Assembly (NCBI GenBank): GCA_021817225.1 | Contig: JAKAVR010000004.1 | Location: forward strand, 1 to 61,935 | Length of the DNA stretch: 61,935 bases | Source: Thermoplasmata archaeon | Lineage (GTDB): Archaea > Thermoplasmatota > Thermoplasmata > Sysuiplasmatales > Sysuiplasmataceae | Direction of reading: 5' to 3' | Part shown: in pieces, positions 3 through 11,719 of the stretch | Layout of the letters: each line of letters opens with the position of its first letter | Position numbering within the stretch: the stretch's first letter is position 1 | Program-made: the position numbers and the translations under genes | Notes under the pieces: generated by a model | The model's database searches: none | Seen by the model: only the letters and a program-made list of their open reading frames with translations | Told to the model about the DNA's origin: nothing

Positions 3-1091
3 AGCAGAACATTCGAAGAGAAGGAGATTTTCGAGGGGGATGAGATATGCATCCGGTACTCCCTCGGATTCAGTGGATTCAGGCCGAGGCTTGTGCAGCT
101 GGTACAGGAGTTTCCCGAAGGCATGTCATTGCCTCCGGCCCAGGAGTACAGGATTATTTCCGGGCAGGCGGAACTCGAAATGAGGGTCAGGGCGGTCTCA
201 AGGGGAAAGTACCTCTTCCCGCCATGCAGGCTGGCGGTCTCGGACATTGCCGGCCTGAAGGTCGAATTTCACCATTTCGGCGGCGAGGAGCGCATTCTTG
301 TCTCTTCCAGGGTGCAGAGAATAGACGTGGACGCCATTCAGCCAATGCGCCCGAAGACGGTGACGGGCAACAGGATTTCACGCTACAGGGGAGGAGGCAG
401 CGACTTCTACTCCCTCAGGAAATACATGGAGGGGGAGTCGGTCCGCAGGATAAACTGGCGCGCGTCCGCCAGGTCGGATGAACTCTGGGTCAATGAGTAC
501 CTCGCCGAAAGCAGCGGGACTCAGATCATTGTTCTTGATGCCAGGACAATGGAGGACGACAGGCGGCTCACAAAGGAGATGGCCGATGCAGGCATTCGTG
601 CAGCAACTTCAATAGCATATTCATCCCTGAACGACCGCAATGCAGTCGGCATGTTCATAATCTCCGATGCAGCGAGGATAATCAGGCCGGACTACGGCGC
701 AAGGCAGTTCATACGCATCGGCGAGGCCCTCAAGAACATGGGCGTCCCAACCTCAAAGGGGGCGCTCAATATGCAGAGGATGGCAAGGGTCTACGGCGAC
801 GAAAAGGCGCAGTATGTTGTCATTTCGCCGCTGCCGGATGATGATACACTTGATTCCGTGGCAGAGCTCGCTCTCTCCCATGAAGACGTACTCGTGCTTG
901 TCCCGCTTGTAAGCATAAGGGAAAGGGCCAACGGGCCGGAGGAGATGGCATTGACTGTCACGAGACTCAGACAGGAGACAAATGCAGTCATACTGTCGCA
1001 GATTTGCAGGACGCTTACCTGGCAGAAGGACAGTGAGCTGTCTGTGGCTGTGGGCAGAGCAGGAATGTACCAGATAAGGAGGAGGCTATGA
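3..1091 (+). CDS. DUF58 domain protein (5' end off-window)
   Basis: Frame is open from base 3; DUF58 motif DFYSLRKYMEGESVRRINWRASAR followed by IIVLDARTM. Confidence 0.85.
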   Translation, partial: SRTFEEKEIFEGDEICIRYSLGFSGFRPRLVQLVQEFPEGMSLPPAQEYRIISGQAELEMRVRAVSRGKYLFPPCRLAVSDIAGLKVEFHHFGGEERILVSSRVQRIDVDAIQPMRPKTVTGNRISRYRGGGSDFYSLRKYMEGESVRRINWRASARSDELWVNEYLAESSGTQIIVLDARTMEDDRRLTKEMADAGIRAATSIAYSSLNDRNAVGMFIISDAARIIRPDYGARQFIRIGEALKNMGVPTSKGALNMQRMARVYGDEKAQYVVISPLPDDDTLDSVAELALSHEDVLVLVPLVSIRERANGPEEMALTVTRLRQETNAVILSQICRTLTWQKDSELSVAVGRAGMYQIRRRL

Positions 1092-1608: not shown

Positions 1609-2430
1609 CTACGCTCCAGTCCGCATAGTCCTTCTTGCTGTCCTTGCCACGAGAATGAAAACTGCCAGCACCGCCACGGATATCACTGTGATAGCGAATC
1701 CCGAACCTGACGCGGCAAGAGAAACCGAGAGAACAACTATTGTGGCTGCGGCACCGACTGCAAGATGAAGCGCCGTTTGCTCCAGCCTGATTGAATTCAC
1801 GCCACCTGCTGCATGCATTATGAACAGGAAGAAGCCGGCAACTGCGAGGAGTAGAAGAAAGAGTATTTCGGGGGATATTCCGATGTTCATTGTCTGCAGC
1901 GGCAGGCCGGACTGGTACCCGCTCTCGAACAGGGAAGCTATTCCAGAGAGCTGAAGCGACCAGACGTCGATGTAGGCTGCAATCACAGGCACCGTGTGCA
2001 TCTGAGAGTAGCTGACAGTTGCAACTTCATCCAGCGTAATCCCTGTGCCGAGAAGGAACGCGCTCATCGCCTGGAAAGGCTCCCTTGAACGGAGTATTTC
2101 CATTCCGAATATGAAGGGAAGAGCAAACTCCGCCGACATGATTGCGGAGTATACCTCGGTCCCCCTTTGCTGGGCGCCGCCCCCTGTCGGCCCGATGGCA
2201 TAAAAGAGAACAGAGAGCATAAAAAGCATCTCGACGGCGAAATAGAATGGAACTTTCCTCCTGTCTGGCAGGGCCCTCGACACAAAGGGGACTGCAATGA
2301 AAGGGACGACGAGAAGGGGGTTCAGGCCAGGAGCAAAGAAGGGGACCGTGTATGCGAAGAGGGCAAAGAGAGGAAGAGCCACCAGGAGCCGGGATGTGTT
2401 CAGAAGGGTTCTGCCTTCAGTATCCGGCAT
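1609..2430 (-). CDS. Hypothetical polytopic membrane protein
   Basis: Start chosen at MPDTEG after GGAGGT RBS; many hydrophobic helices; last gene of the minus-strand MoxR operon. Confidence 0.75.
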   Translation of the reverse strand: MPDTEGRTLLNTSRLLVALPLFALFAYTVPFFAPGLNPLLVVPFIAVPFVSRALPDRRKVPFYFAVEMLFMLSVLFYAIGPTGGGAQQRGTEVYSAIMSAEFALPFIFGMEILRSREPFQAMSAFLLGTGITLDEVATVSYSQMHTVPVIAAYIDVWSLQLSGIASLFESGYQSGLPLQTMNIGISPEILFLLLLAVAGFFLFIMHAAGGVNSIRLEQTALHLAVGAAATIVVLSVSLAASGSGFAITVISVAVLAVFILVARTARRTMRTGA

Positions 2431-3724
2431 ATGAATACCTCCCTTCGAACCATACGGCCGCGAGGTCTGAAACAAGCGTCCTGGAGGAAGACAGCTTGGC
2501 ACGTACCCCGAGCCCGTTGAGCAGCCTTACGTTGTTTGACATCTGACTCCTCCTTCCGACTGTGACCATCCTCATCAGTGTGAAGCTGGCATTCTTCCCG
2601 GAGGAGTCGAAGAAGGTGGATGCCTCCGGGACTATAAGCCTCACCGAACGTCTTGAGAGAAGAGGCACAGACTCGCGGCTAATCGCCATGCCGTCGAAAG
2701 TCATCAGAGGCGAAATGACAACAGTAAGCGCTGACTTGCCGTACCTTTTTTTCAGCGCCCTGACAGACCCTGCCAGGTCAAACTGCCCGTCGGGTTCGGT
2801 CGACTTCAGGATCGCCTGCAGCTGCTTCGCCGATGATGCGACAGGTTCGGGAGCAACAAAGAAATTCCGTGTCGATGAATAAAGGAAGAAACCTACCCTG
2901 TCGCCCTGCCTGCAAAGTGCAAAAGATGCGCGGAGGGCACTTGATACCTCGTTGCAGTATATCCTGTCCAGCTGGCCGATGTTGGTTGATGAGCTATAGT
3001 CGATTACGAATATTGTATCCGTGTTTCTCTCGTCCTCCATCTCCTTGACATAGACATCATCACCACTGACCGTTCCGAACCTGTTCCATGCTATCCTTCT
3101 CGATTCATCGTGGACAGTGTAGGGCCTTATGCTGAGGAACTGGTAACCCTGGCCAGGGCGCGGCAGGCTGCCCGCCCCTGCGACGAATGTGTTGCTCCGC
3201 GTGGCCACGCCCCTCATCTCGGCCCTTTCGGCTATTATGGGAGGAATGGCAACCCGGTCCGTTACTGGCTTCAGTATCCTGAAGCGGCAGAGGCCAAACG
3301 GATCAGATGCGCTCAGCTCCAGCGGTCCTAGAGTGTGGCGGCCGAAGTAGGGGGAGGTGACCGAATACTCCTTGTATGCCTGCCCTCTGCCCCTGAAGAT
3401 TATGCTCCCGCTGCTCTCGCCCTGCGCCTCGAGGCCTTCCGAGAGCAAATCGGCATATTTGAAGACGAGAAGTCCCTGGCCGGTACCTGAAAACTCAAGT
3501 GCAACGTCGAACCAGCCCGCTTTCGCCGAAGGAACTATCCTTCTGCGTACCTGCAACGACTTGATTCGCTCCACTGTAACAGTATGAAAAATGACAACAT
3601 CTGCTGAAACAGTGAAGAAAAGAAGCAGCGAAAAAATCAGGAAGTAGCTGTATCCGAGCATAACTGCCTCGAATATGCCGAAAGTGAGCAGAAACAGCAG
3701 CGGGTAGGTGGACCACTTTATCAT
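2417..3724 (-). CDS. DUF58 domain protein
   Basis: N-terminal TM helices; GYQFLSIRPYTVHDESRRIAWNR motif; FVIDYSSS VWA-like motif; ATGA-coupled to MoxR. Confidence 0.85.
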   Translation of the reverse strand: MIKWSTYPLLFLLTFGIFEAVMLGYSYFLIFSLLLFFTVSADVVIFHTVTVERIKSLQVRRRIVPSAKAGWFDVALEFSGTGQGLLVFKYADLLSEGLEAQGESSGSIIFRGRGQAYKEYSVTSPYFGRHTLGPLELSASDPFGLCRFRILKPVTDRVAIPPIIAERAEMRGVATRSNTFVAGAGSLPRPGQGYQFLSIRPYTVHDESRRIAWNRFGTVSGDDVYVKEMEDERNTDTIFVIDYSSSTNIGQLDRIYCNEVSSALRASFALCRQGDRVGFFLYSSTRNFFVAPEPVASSAKQLQAILKSTEPDGQFDLAGSVRALKKRYGKSALTVVISPLMTFDGMAISRESVPLLSRRSVRLIVPEASTFFDSSGKNASFTLMRMVTVGRRSQMSNNVRLLNGLGVRAKLSSSRTLVSDLAAVWFEGRYSYAGY

Positions 3725-4692
3725 CTTGGAACTTTCACGTCCTTTATTATCCCGTTTATGACCGCATTCATCACCGCAAGTGGCTCGTTGTCGCTCTCCA
3801 GATGCATTTCAGGTTGAAGTATGAGCCTGTGGTTCAGCATCTCATATGCAATGAATTTCACGTCGTCAGGCAGGACATAATCTCTGCCGCACAGGAGCGC
3901 GTTTGCCCTTATGGCCCTGATGTACTTGACGCTCGTCCGCGGACTGGCACCTAGAAAGACTCCTTTTGCCTCCCTTGTATGCCTGATAAGGTCAACCACA
4001 TATTCGGACACCTCGTCCGATACATGGACATCCTTCACTGTCTGCCTCAGCGACCTGATCTCTTCGGCCGTGAAAAACTCGGGTCTCTCACCCGCATCCA
4101 GGGAGGTGCGAACTGCCTTGAGTTCATCTTCCCTTGTGGGGTAAGTCATCCTGTATCTGAACAGAAAACGATCCAGCAGCGCCTCCGCCAGCGGAAATGT
4201 GCCTTCCTGCTCTATCGGGTTCTGAGTGGCTATAACAAAAAAGGGCTCGGGCAGAGGATGCATCTGGCCGTTTGAGCTTACCTGCCTCTCCTCCATCGAC
4301 TCCAGAAGTGCTGACTGCACTTTCGGCGGCGTTCTGTTTATCTCGTCCGCAAGCAGTACATTTGTGAAAACAGGTCCTTCCCTGAATTCCATTTTCCTTG
4401 TCTGCAGATTCAGGACGTAGTTTCCCATCACATCGGTCGGAAGCATGTCCGGGGTGAACTGAATTCGCTTGAAGTCCAGGCCGAGATGTCTTGCAAACTC
4501 ATTTGCAAGCCTTGTCTTGGCCAGACCTGGGACACCCTCCAGAAGAATGTGGTTTTCGGTGAGGATCGAGATGAGCATGAACCTCACTATCCTTTCCGAC
4601 CCAATGACGCGCTTTCCGATCTCAAGCCGGAGCCGCAGCATCTTCTCATCCAGGCCTTTTCTCTCTCTTTCTTCCATGACCGCACCTGTCAT
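3721..4692 (-). CDS. moxR: MoxR-family AAA+ ATPase
   Basis: HILLEGVPGLAKT, RIQFTPDMLPTD, LLADEINRTPPKVQSALLE, ATQNPIEQEGTFPL..LLDRF. Confidence 0.93.
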   Translation of the reverse strand: MTGAVMEERERKGLDEKMLRLRLEIGKRVIGSERIVRFMLISILTENHILLEGVPGLAKTRLANEFARHLGLDFKRIQFTPDMLPTDVMGNYVLNLQTRKMEFREGPVFTNVLLADEINRTPPKVQSALLESMEERQVSSNGQMHPLPEPFFVIATQNPIEQEGTFPLAEALLDRFLFRYRMTYPTREDELKAVRTSLDAGERPEFFTAEEIRSLRQTVKDVHVSDEVSEYVVDLIRHTREAKGVFLGASPRTSVKYIRAIRANALLCGRDYVLPDDVKFIAYEMLNHRLILQPEMHLESDNEPLAVMNAVINGIIKDVKVPR

Positions 4693-9857: not shown

Positions 9858-10823
9858 GTGTCGATTTTGCGTGAGACATCCGCACTCGGTGGAACCGTAG
9901 AAGATGCCGTGGATGCCATAAAGGCAAAGAACGGCATAGTAGGAAGGGAAAAGGAGCTCAGGCTGGCGCTGCTCTGCTCCTTGGCAGGGAGGCACACCCT
10001 CATAGAGGGTCCAGTGGGAGTCGGAAAGACGGTTCTGGCGACAGCCATTGCAGACCATCTCAACCGGCCCATATTCCGTGTTGACGGCGATGAGCGCTAC
10101 ACTGAACAGAAACTGACAGGGTGGTTTGATCCCCCCATCGTGATGAAGAAAGGCTACACAATGGATGCGTTCATAAGCGGGCCGCTGACATCGGCGATGG
10201 ACACAGGTGGCATCCTTTTCATCAACGAACTGAACAGGCTTAATGAGGGCGTGCAAAACGTTCTGCTGCCAGCAATGGACGAGGGAAAGATAGAGGTCCC
10301 GAGGATTGGCACCATGATGGCAAAAGAGGGTTTTCTGATCATTGCAACGCAGAACCCACGTGAATTTGTCGCCACGAGCTCCCTCTCAGAGGCATTGTCA
10401 GACAGGTTTGAGCTGCTGCCCCTCACTTATCAGTCGGAGGAGGAAGAAAGGCTCATAGTTGAGACGAGGACTGGAATCAAGGAGCAGCGTGTCATCAGGG
10501 CAGTCACATCCATCATCCGCGAAACAAGGGTGCACCCCTCGATTCGCCGCGGCGCATCAATCAGGGCGGCCACAGGAATGGCCCTCCTTCTTTCAAGAAT
10601 GGGAACCTCATTCGCGGCATTCCGGGAGGCCGCGTACATGTCAATACCCACCAGGGTCGAACTCCGTGAAGATGCCAAGAAGACGGTCTATGAGGTAATA
10701 GACGAAATACTTGAGAAGGTTCTGACAGATATTCCGATTGAGCAGCCCGCTCAGGTCAGAGCTGAGTCGAATGAAGAGCCTCCGGAGAAGAAGTCCGAGG
10801 AAAAAAAAACGATCAGGAAGTAG
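9858..10823 (+). CDS. MoxR-like AAA+ ATPase
   Basis: HTLIEGPVGVGKT, ILFINELNR, ATQNPRE..LSEALSDRF; ends in a charged linker containing an A9 run. Confidence 0.9.
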   Translation: MSILRETSALGGTVEDAVDAIKAKNGIVGREKELRLALLCSLAGRHTLIEGPVGVGKTVLATAIADHLNRPIFRVDGDERYTEQKLTGWFDPPIVMKKGYTMDAFISGPLTSAMDTGGILFINELNRLNEGVQNVLLPAMDEGKIEVPRIGTMMAKEGFLIIATQNPREFVATSSLSEALSDRFELLPLTYQSEEEERLIVETRTGIKEQRVIRAVTSIIRETRVHPSIRRGASIRAATGMALLLSRMGTSFAAFREAAYMSIPTRVELREDAKKTVYEVIDEILEKVLTDIPIEQPAQVRAESNEEPPEKKSEEKKTIRK

Positions 10824-10852
10824 AGAGTGAGCCTGACGATGCCCTGGACATA

Positions 10853-11719
10853 ATGCAACGGTTGAAGGGTATAGTCGATGTTCCCGGGGGAACCGGAGAG
10901 GAAATTATCTGGTCGATTGCAAAAAACTACCAGAAGATAAGGCTCAAGGCAAAGGACCCATCGCTTGTGAGGGCGGCAAAAAGGATTGCAATAAGGGCAA
11001 TAATAGACAGGACACTGAGGCAGCTCGGCCCCACCAAGATGCCTACGGTAAAAAGGCTTGTGGATTACAGGCCGGGCGTTGAAGGGGAGATTGAGATAGC
11101 CAGCACACTGGATAATATTGCTTCCCCCAGGGACATTCAGCCCGAGGAAATAGTGCTTGAGAGGAAAGAACTGAAACACATTGCATGCGTGCTTATGATC
11201 GATGCAAGCCTCTCAATGACAGGGGAGAAGCTCGCCGTTGCAACTAGCTCGATAGCTGTCCTGGCGCACAGGCTCAAGGGAATTGAGTACGCGGTGGTGC
11301 TCTTCGAAAACAAGGCAAACACAATAAAGAAGATGGAGAAGGATGCGGACATGGAAAAGCTCATTGGCGATCTCCTTGACCTGAACGCCATGGGATACAC
11401 CAACATAGAGGAGGGATTGAGGGCGGGCCTCAGGGAGCTCGAAAAAGCAAAGACTCCCAATAAGATAGGTGTAGTCGTCACAGACGGCAATTATACCATG
11501 GGCCACGATCCGAGGCAGCTTGCAGCATTGTTTCCGAAGCTGCACGTTATGATGACAACAGGACTGGATGCAAGGGACGACGTGTGCCAGGGAATGGCAA
11601 GCAATGGCAAGGGTGAGATGTACGAGATCAAGAATTACGAGGAAATGCCGAAGGTCCTGTACAGCCTGATCAAGACGTTCAACCTCAGACTGCACCAGAG
11701 GGGCGGAACAAACAGGTAG
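10853..11719 (+). CDS. VWA domain protein (possibly C-terminal part of a -1 frameshift fusion with the AAA+)
   Basis: MIDAS LMIDASLSM, GYTNIEEGL, VVVTDGNYT; frame is open upstream to about 10775. Confidence 0.88.
   Translation: MQRLKGIVDVPGGTGEEIIWSIAKNYQKIRLKAKDPSLVRAAKRIAIRAIIDRTLRQLGPTKMPTVKRLVDYRPGVEGEIEIASTLDNIASPRDIQPEEIVLERKELKHIACVLMIDASLSMTGEKLAVATSSIAVLAHRLKGIEYAVVLFENKANTIKKMEKDADMEKLIGDLLDLNAMGYTNIEEGLRAGLRELEKAKTPNKIGVVVTDGNYTMGHDPRQLAALFPKLHVMMTTGLDARDDVCQGMASNGKGEMYEIKNYEEMPKVLYSLIKTFNLRLHQRGGTNR

Follow-up and report, generated by a model that had tools for sequence, protein, structure and literature searches.

A conserved A9 run as a probable recoding site between the AAA+ and VWA halves of an archaeal gene

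Described recoded systems and the layout of the locus

Recoding at poly-A runs between an AAA+ half and a VWA half has been reported for chlD (PMC3711429) and covered in reviews (PMC5009743, PMC9227772). In E. coli reporters, chlD cassettes with A7, A9 and A11 gave frame changes of 10, 40 and 63%, respectively (PMC3711429). A related arrangement is found in a 61,935-nucleotide (nt) stretch of DNA, referred to here as the window, which comprises positions 1 to 61,935 of contig JAKAVR010000004.1 (assembly GCA_021817225.1) from an acid-mine archaeon of the Thermoplasmata, Candidatus Sysuiplasmataceae, whose 1.97-Mb genome is a metagenome bin of 99 contigs and is 95% complete. Two open reading frames (ORFs) on its forward strand, at 9858-10823 and 10853-11719, probably constitute one recoded gene, in which an AAA+ ATPase would be extended by a VWA/MIDAS domain in a fraction of expression events. 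This reading was first put forward in a preliminary description of the window, and comparative sequence evidence now supports it.

The upstream ORF (9858-10823, +) encodes a 321-amino acid (aa) ATPase of the AAA_5/MoxR type with the Walker A motif GPVGVGKT, and the downstream ORF, annotated from an ATG at 10853 to 11719 (+), encodes a 288-aa VWA/MIDAS protein that would form the C-terminal half of the long product. The putative recoding site is a run of nine adenines (A9, 10801-10809, +), where either one additional A in the mRNA or a -1 slip would lead into the VWA frame. In the ATPase frame this region reads GA[A AAA AAA] ACG ATC AGG AAG TAG; a canonical X_XXY_YYZ heptamer, A_AAA_AAA (10802-10808, +), thus lies within the run, four codons separate it from the stop, and the TAG (10821-10823, +) is the fifth codon after two in-frame AAA codons. 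The VWA ORF is in the -1 frame relative to the ATPase ORF. A stop at 10772-10774 precedes the part of this frame that is open upstream of the annotated ATG (10775-10852, +), and through that ATG the frame reads GKKNDQEVESEPDDALDIMQR; its part at 10808-10852 (+) would supply linker residues of the long product. The TAG precedes the VWA ATG by 29 nt, and no Shine-Dalgarno (SD)-like 4-mer occurs within 25 nt of that ATG in the window. This layout, including the positions of the run and the stop, the 321-aa ATPase, the -1 frame open from 10775 and the absence of a clear ribosome-binding site before the VWA ATG, had already been described and is borne out by the sequence. Public gene calls include the 288-aa VWA protein from the ATG at 10853, which is nameless in the protein collection, and the 321-aa ATPase as delimited here is absent from the same collection.

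In the proposed scheme, standard decoding would end at the TAG at 10821 and yield the MoxR/AAA_5-type AAA+ ATPase of 321 aa. Some expression events would instead involve a one-base shift of register at the A9 run, and the shifted reading would give a product of about 620 aa (317 + 303) composed of the ATPase, an acidic linker and the VWA/MIDAS domain. The likelier route would be slippage of RNA polymerase, whereby the mRNA gains one A and A9 becomes A10; ribosomes slipping by -1 on A_AAA_AAA might be an alternative or a co-contributor. If ChlI/ChlD and NorQ6:NorD1 are a guide, both forms would join in one ring with fewer than six VWA tails. The production of the long protein, its route, its proportion and its assembly are what we infer from this arrangement, and the set stoichiometry of the two forms suggested in the preliminary description would belong to the same scheme.

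The locus shares with fs-chlD genes an AAA+ half, a linker with a conserved A-rich slip site (mostly -1) and a VWA half, a short product consisting of the ATPase and a long product consisting of ATPase plus VWA, the existence of fused versions in other species, and annotation as two adjacent genes. It differs in protein family, as judged by curated-model scores of 38-66 bits against cut-offs of 499-779 bits. Both devices seen in dnaX, which makes two products via a heptamer with a hairpin in E. coli (A_AAA_AAG) or via a bare A9 in Thermus thermophilus (PMC3711429, PMC1088944), also occur in the family described here. However, the recoded dnaX product is usually the shorter one, whereas recoding at the window locus would give the longer product. 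Among cellular genes of Archaea, Saccharolobus solfataricus fucA1 likewise has two ORFs in -1 register and an A-rich heptamer, A_AAA_AAT (PMC8211752), but it is a single case in one species, unlike the window site, which is conserved across genera and phyla. A 2021 review names fucA1 as the sole reported cellular -1 frameshift in Archaea, next to a frameshift predicted for methanococcal chelatase genes (PMC8211752). In the NorQ/NorD and CbbQ/CbbO systems, an AAA_5-type ATPase is also paired with a partner bearing a MIDAS-containing VWA domain; there, the MoxR ATPases and their VWA partners are described as separate genes (PMC9976466) with no recoding reported, whereas the two halves of the present family belong to one gene, fused or putatively recoded. 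One NorD binds a NorQ hexamer (PMC9976466, PMC13036017), which provides a rationale for having fewer VWA tails than ATPase subunits.

Conservation of the run and of the frame behind it

Homopolymers are error-prone, and in a 99-contig metagenome bin the split might in principle reflect an assembly or sequencing error or a decaying pseudogene. The preliminary description had called for a check of A9 against A10. Contigs assembled from the runs of other studies (Logan) were aligned over 10300-11300; as contigs, they leave rare length variants invisible. One (X5) shows 0 differences over this interval, and two further runs (X7 and X8) yield one and the same contig of 4284 bases, which differs from the window by 19 substitutions and has no gaps. 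A diverged relative in X1 and X5 matches the window at islands only, one of which is 10790-10818. No indel was found across the run in these independent contigs and A9 recurs in nine other genomes; as far as contigs can tell, the run is no homopolymer error. In addition, the VWA ORF is intact, its MIDAS residues are invariant and its substitutions follow a purifying pattern, which makes error or decay scarcely credible as an explanation.

To define the orthologous set, 41 related genomes were searched, 12 of which carry the gene at E <= 1e-30. A class-wide search recovered it in 49 of 401 genomes at E <= 1e-40, all in two families, f1, to which the genome of the window belongs, and its sister f4. 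It is present in 8 of 9 f1 genomes besides the window's own and in 40 of 46 f4 genomes. Open frames are about 320-340 aa long in f1 and about 600-700 aa in f4 wherever the contig permits, with four much shorter f4 rows (325, 224, 186 and 193 aa). One f4 genome (G197:C30:7091-7942) has a single in-frame TAG within the match. The existence of fused orthologues with a single ORF accords with the idea that the two halves form one protein.

Thirteen relative loci were fetched, ten split and three fused. The split orthologues are 67-96% identical to the window in protein sequence and represent 9 genomes from three genera plus a second contig of one of them (G008). All ten carry exactly G-A9-CGATC followed by (A/G)G, and the three fused loci have no such A run. 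In the window, the CGATC(A/G)G element directly 3' of the run spans 10810-10816 (+); its first five bases (10810-10814) are invariant in all ten split loci, including the third codon positions of the -1 frame (AAC GAT), for which a double-frame constraint or a sequence signal is possible. The standard-frame stop falls at the identical codon in all orthologues, as TAG, TGA or TAA, and the VWA frame is -1 in 10/10 split loci. Accordingly, both the poly-A site and the -1 register, the two features by which the preliminary description had proposed to judge orthologues, are kept throughout. One of the split loci is a second, partial copy in genome G008 on another contig (L013, G008:C59); its junction differs from that of L005 (G007) by one base over 129 compared, and this near-identity may reflect bin contamination or recent transfer.

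On its own, an A9 run is within chance expectation in this genome, because fewer A/T runs of exactly 9 are seen in the 1.97 Mb (3) than composition predicts (5.4), and none is longer. The other two (C30:2614 and C34:31977) are not placed in a recoding arrangement between two long ORFs. What exceeds chance is the exact conservation of the site in 10/10 split loci. The same cannot be said of the purine motifs noted 5' of the run: GGAG (10784-10787) and GAGG (10797-10800) are present as described, but GAGG directly before the run is kept in 5/9 orthologues and its last G alone is invariant, which speaks against a role as a conserved stimulator.

The run might also be a switch at the DNA level, whereby replication changes its length and turns the fusion on or off within populations. 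Homopolymer runs are known to be hypermutable (PMC1088944), and run lengths of A9, A10 and A11 are represented in the wider family. However, A9 without any indel is found in all ten split loci and in contigs of a strain about 98% identical, and no A10 (fused) allele was seen in the window's clade, where contigs would hide rare variants. Phase variation of this kind is thus considered very improbable.

A further line of evidence comes from the stretch between the run and the VWA ATG. Codon-position divergence was calculated as the mean pairwise difference among 9 sequences over stretches of 14 codons. In the -1 frame, the stretch from the run to the ATG gives 0.276/0.165/0.516 for positions 1/2/3, close to the values of the first 14 codons 3' of the ATG (0.27/0.139/0.558), whereas the 14 linker codons 5' of the run give 0.536/0.575/0.671 in the standard frame. 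By this pattern, the run-to-ATG stretch appears to evolve as coding sequence in the -1 frame, and the linker 5' of the run appears to vary alike at all three codon positions, free to vary. The ratio of synonymous to non-synonymous codon differences in the run-to-ATG stretch is likewise 116:211 in the -1 frame versus 50:262 and 27:275 in the others. These results agree with the earlier suggestion that the -1 frame is translated upstream of the ATG. In two loci this frame opens as little as 2 nt (L007) and 5 nt (L006) 5' of the run. Moreover, in an alignment with the fused f4 proteins, the peptide before the ATG, DA[LF][DE][IL], falls opposite D[IV]xD[ILV] of their linker; in these proteins the Met position is taken by V, M, A, S or L, and Met is unconserved.

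These observations bear directly on gene fission, in which the ORFs would be two ordinary genes, with the VWA protein initiated at the ATG at 10853 on its own or by re-initiation and the A9 run a remnant of a lysine-rich linker. The ATG is kept in 8/9 loci, the TAG lies just 29 nt 5' of it, the 288-aa protein appears in public gene calls, and Thermoplasmata may do without SD motifs. Separate genes for such partners are also the rule in NorQ/NorD and CbbQ/CbbO (PMC9976466). Nevertheless, fission leaves unexplained why A9 and CGATC are exact in 10/10 loci beside a linker that varies freely, why split relatives in the wider family keep the -1 register in 35/36 cases and a slippery motif in 36/36, and why coding constraint extends 5' of the ATG where 6/9 loci have no ATG, GTG or TTG between the upstream -1 stop and the ATG position. 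It also fails to account for the GCG that replaces the ATG in G005 and for the fact that the peptide before the ATG is homologous to the linker of fused proteins. Initiation of the VWA protein solely at 10853, the outcome that the preliminary description had set against its own proposal, sits poorly with this GCG and with the six loci that have no alternative start. Two independent genes are therefore regarded as an unlikely arrangement, and a single recoded gene remains the preferred reading.

Fused and split relatives and the possible routes of slippage

To place the locus in a broader context, a species-level genome collection was searched with a profile of the ATPase core, and the best 80 of 230 relatives were analysed. 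A fused single ORF is present at 43 of these 80 loci, 36 are split, and one (L103) is cut by a contig end. In the split loci, the VWA frame is -1 in 35 cases and +1 in one (L052, A11), and a slippery motif lies within the frame overlap in 36/36, although many of these overlaps span just 10-40 nt. Of the 26 poly-A sites, 23 have exactly nine A's (A9) and belong to Sysuiplasmatales, Hadarchaeota, Spirochaetota, Sumerlaeota, Abyssobacteria, Poribacteria, Oligoflexia and one Methanomethylicus; the remaining three are A7 (L077), A10 (L110) and A11 (L052). In the +1 locus, from Hadarchaeota (L052:3306-3385), the frames join with one A fewer rather than one more. The other split loci carry heptamers, namely A_AAT_TTT or A_AAT_TTC in seven loci from Methanomethylicia, Nitrososphaerota, Bathyarchaeota and Baldrarchaeum, and G_GGT_TTT or G_GAT_TTT in three loci from Jordarchaeia. 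An 8-bp CCUCCCUC/GAGGGAGG hairpin usually follows the heptamer sites and begins 7-8 nt downstream, as it does in the A_AAT_TTT loci named below. Textbook -1 cassettes with A_AAT_TTT (or G_GGT_TTT) directly before the stop or 1-2 codons before it can be seen in relatives from Methanomethylicia, Nitrososphaerota, Bathyarchaeota and Jordarchaeia, for example at about 3400-3480 in L082, L085, L089, L096, L098 and L104 and at about 3340-3400 in L099, L100 and L105.

In a quick maximum-likelihood tree built from 79 ATPase cores, which has Shimodaira-Hasegawa-like approximate likelihood ratio test (SH-aLRT) support only and long-branch warnings for L077, L087, L091 and L110, the fused/split state needs at least 5 changes. 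The window's clade (Sysuiplasmatales) stands apart from the fused Thermoplasmata clade on this tree and groups with a Nitrososphaeria sequence, near Hadarchaeota (90 SH-aLRT). This position, with its modest support, hints at horizontal transfer of the gene.

The two kinds of site differ in what lies downstream of them. When the 50 nt 3' of each motif were folded and compared with mononucleotide shuffles, sites with at least nine A's (n=25) had a mean z of +0.23 and a mean minimum free energy of -8.2 kcal/mol. The corresponding means for the 11 heptamer or A7 sites were -2.39 and -19.1 kcal/mol. With related rows and mononucleotide shuffles, the p of 1e-4 between the classes (Mann-Whitney) serves as description only. 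Within the window's clade, z ranges from -2.8 to +1.2, and RNAalifold yields a 5-bp stem only, broken in some sequences, with no compensatory change and a consensus energy of -4.5 kcal/mol. No conserved stimulatory hairpin or pseudoknot 5-9 nt downstream was found in this clade by RNAalifold, single-sequence folding or Rfam, and an Rfam search of 10650-11000 gave no match at E <= 1. A promoter and terminator scan based on a bacterial consensus returned nothing relevant.

The preliminary description had also pointed to a weak TCAGG/CCTGA stem at 10813-10836 (+; TCAGG at 10813-10817, CCTGA at 10832-10836). The stem is present and is indeed weak, but a role as a stimulator is rejected in view of its five pairs without compensatory change, its -4.5 kcal/mol and a z of -1.42 for the window sequence folded alone.

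Short heptamers cannot support polymerase slippage, and the family accordingly uses ribosomal frameshifting in the heptamer clades. Conversely, the bare A9 sites fit polymerase slippage because they have no stimulator and keep two A's beyond the heptamer. The run is longer than a heptamer requires in 10/10 split orthologues, as programmed transcriptional slippage would demand. Many bacteria begin to show selection against slippage-prone runs at a length of nine, and the A9 of Thermus thermophilus dnaX is a case of transcriptional slippage (PMC1088944). Either polymerase slippage or a hairpin-free ribosomal slip on poly-A could thus operate at the bare A9 site, and within the recoding reading the former is considered slightly the more likely.

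A purely ribosomal -1 frameshift on A_AAA_AAA, with the mRNA faithfully A9, would be a sub-case of the same recoding and has a substantial, though lesser, claim. The heptamer is canonical and in the correct frame, poly-A is intrinsically slippery for ribosomes, other clades of the family use A_AAT_TTY (7 loci) or G_GRT_TTT (3 loci) with the 8-bp GC hairpin 7-8 nt downstream, and the invariant CGATC could belong to a signal. On the other hand, the window's clade has no conserved stimulatory structure, the two A's beyond the heptamer are invariant in 10/10 loci, and the sole A7 site, L077, has a strong hairpin (-32.8 kcal/mol, z -4.1) where sites with at least nine A's have none.

Several points weigh against recoding by polymerase slippage in the form favoured here. 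The literature consulted reports no programmed transcriptional slippage by archaeal RNA polymerase, and a ribosomal signal might be the reason why CGATC is invariant 3' of the run. The hairpin contrast rests on related sequences and mononucleotide shuffles and is descriptive only, and one f1 locus (L038) has a z of -2.8. The stoichiometry argument is weakened because 43/79 relatives make the fused form only. Furthermore, because the ATG at 10853 is kept in 8/9 loci, independent initiation of a free VWA protein has to be considered as an additional or alternative route.

Protein family, possible role and genomic context

The preliminary description had assigned the two ORFs to a MoxR-like AAA+ protein and its VWA partner outside the chelatases, and profile searches lead to the same assignment. 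The ATPase matches the whole Pfam AAA_5 model (positions 1-139 of 139) at 79.8 bits, against a cut-off of 22, and AAA_3 at 56.8 bits, and the VWA ORF matches VWA at 40.2 bits and VWA_2 at 39.4 bits. The MIDAS residues D117, S119, S121, T183 and D211 are invariant in 16 sequences. The Walker A motif GPVGVGKT is likewise invariant. At the Walker B position the family has hhhhNE (F-I-N-E; N113 and E114 invariant in 15 sequences), with Asn in place of the Asp of the usual hhhhDE.

By sequence criteria, this family lies outside ChlD. Against TIGR02031 (BchD-ChlD; cut-off 499.55) the window ATPase reaches 38.0 bits, and against TIGR02442 (Cob-chelat-sub; cut-off 779.45) it reaches 42.7 bits; the corresponding figures for L010, a fused orthologue, are 34.1 and 66.4 bits, again below both cut-offs. 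No protein of the window's genome exceeds the cut-offs of the ChlD/cobaltochelatase models, and no match to CobN/ChlH (PF02514) was found in this 95% complete genome, in a search whose control detected it in 5/14 named genomes. The missing CobN is not strictly defining against fs-chlD, because some fs-chlD genomes lack the large chelatase subunit too (Kuznetsov 2022, PMC9227772). An Abyssobacteria genome (G404) contains an unsplit ChlI/ChlD-like pair (L118 and L119; 512.9 and 750.8 bits to TIGR02442, both under the 779.45 cut-off) in addition to an A9-split family member (L080); because this genome holds both, the ChlD-like and AAA_5-VWA families are separate, coexisting paralogues. A BLASTP comparison of the G404 ChlD-like protein with the two window proteins gives E = 1e-5 for the ATPase, over 107 aa, and E = 0.62 for the VWA protein; the C-terminal half of this ChlD-like protein reaches 0/79 VWA parts of the family at E <= 1e-6, and its N-terminal half reaches 1/79. 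The Chelatase DB rule calls for both halves at E <= 1e-6 (PMC9227772) and, judging by the single ChlD-like representative from G404, would most likely miss the AAA_5-VWA family.

Among solved structures, the ATPase profile matches midasin far better than any other (7.9e-36; 126.9 bits, profile positions 24-274), followed by MoxR 2r44 at 2.6e-15 and NorQ at 3.2e-13. The single VWA sequence finds nothing meaningful among solved structures, and the VWA profile finds generic VWA domains, with neither the midasin MIDAS domain nor ChlD retrieved at E <= 0.01. Midasin (Rea1/Mdn1) links AAA_5 modules via an acidic linker to a C-terminal MIDAS domain. It differs from the present family in being eukaryotic and in having six AAA modules per chain rather than one, and we know of no recoding in midasin.

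With respect to function, the flanks of relatives are more informative than those of the window. In 11 of 40 sampled relatives, the flanking genes encode corrinoid methyltransferase systems, comprising DUF2284, MtrH, a URO-D-type methyltransferase, a B12-binding protein, MttB, MtmB and RACo (loci L040, L076, L077, L082, L085, L088, L090, L096, L101, L104 and L108). This suggests that the AAA_5-VWA family serves B12/corrinoid enzymes in those lineages, which is a lead rather than evidence on the window locus; in methylotrophic archaea and some bacteria, such surroundings would fit a protein that loads or reactivates cofactors. In the window, the ABC ATPase and isocitrate/isopropylmalate dehydrogenase genes next to the locus are kept in the clade and uninformative, and no B12 enzyme or chelatase gene occurs in its 1-26 kb.

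As a broader and tentative proposal, these proteins may represent one ancient midasin-like AAA_5-VWA chaperone family of at least nine archaeal and bacterial phyla, recoded at the linker in about half of its lineages by two interchangeable devices, a bare A9 with polymerase slippage and a heptamer plus hairpin with ribosomal -1 frameshifting, with efficiency setting the number of MIDAS tails per ring and with a role in loading or reactivating cofactors. If so, polymerase slippage at a bare A9 would have no earlier conserved example among archaeal cellular genes, and recoding efficiency would set the MIDAS tails per ATPase ring, echoing NorQ6:NorD1 and the 6:1 layout of midasin. For MoxR/VWA biology, this would amount to a genetic encoding of the ATPase:VWA ratio. 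The device as such is known from chlD, and the present case is an extension rather than a new principle; the new parts are the protein family, the breadth of the pattern and the split between two devices. No description of recoding in the MoxR/AAA_5-VWA family was found in the literature searched, Antonov 2020 and the gene lists of the chlD clusters and the Chelatase DB lying outside that search.

The putative recoding recurs in Thermoplasmatota, Hadarchaeota, Methanomethylicia, Nitrososphaerota, Bathyarchaeota, Baldrarchaeota, Jordarchaeia and several bacterial phyla, and the poly-A and heptamer-hairpin sites together offer a comparison set for archaeal RNA polymerase slippage and frameshift signals. 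For genome annotation, such pairs of an "AAA ATPase" and a "VWA protein" should be read as one putatively recoded gene.

Some further genes near these loci may be mentioned. In one Oligoflexia relative (L110), a BKACE lysine-fermentation enzyme is next in line. The window itself contains a second, classical MoxR operon 5 kb upstream of the locus (2420-4692, -), in which an AAA_3 ATPase (207.6 bits) is followed by a DUF58 protein, and a further DUF58 gene is located at 93-1088 (+).

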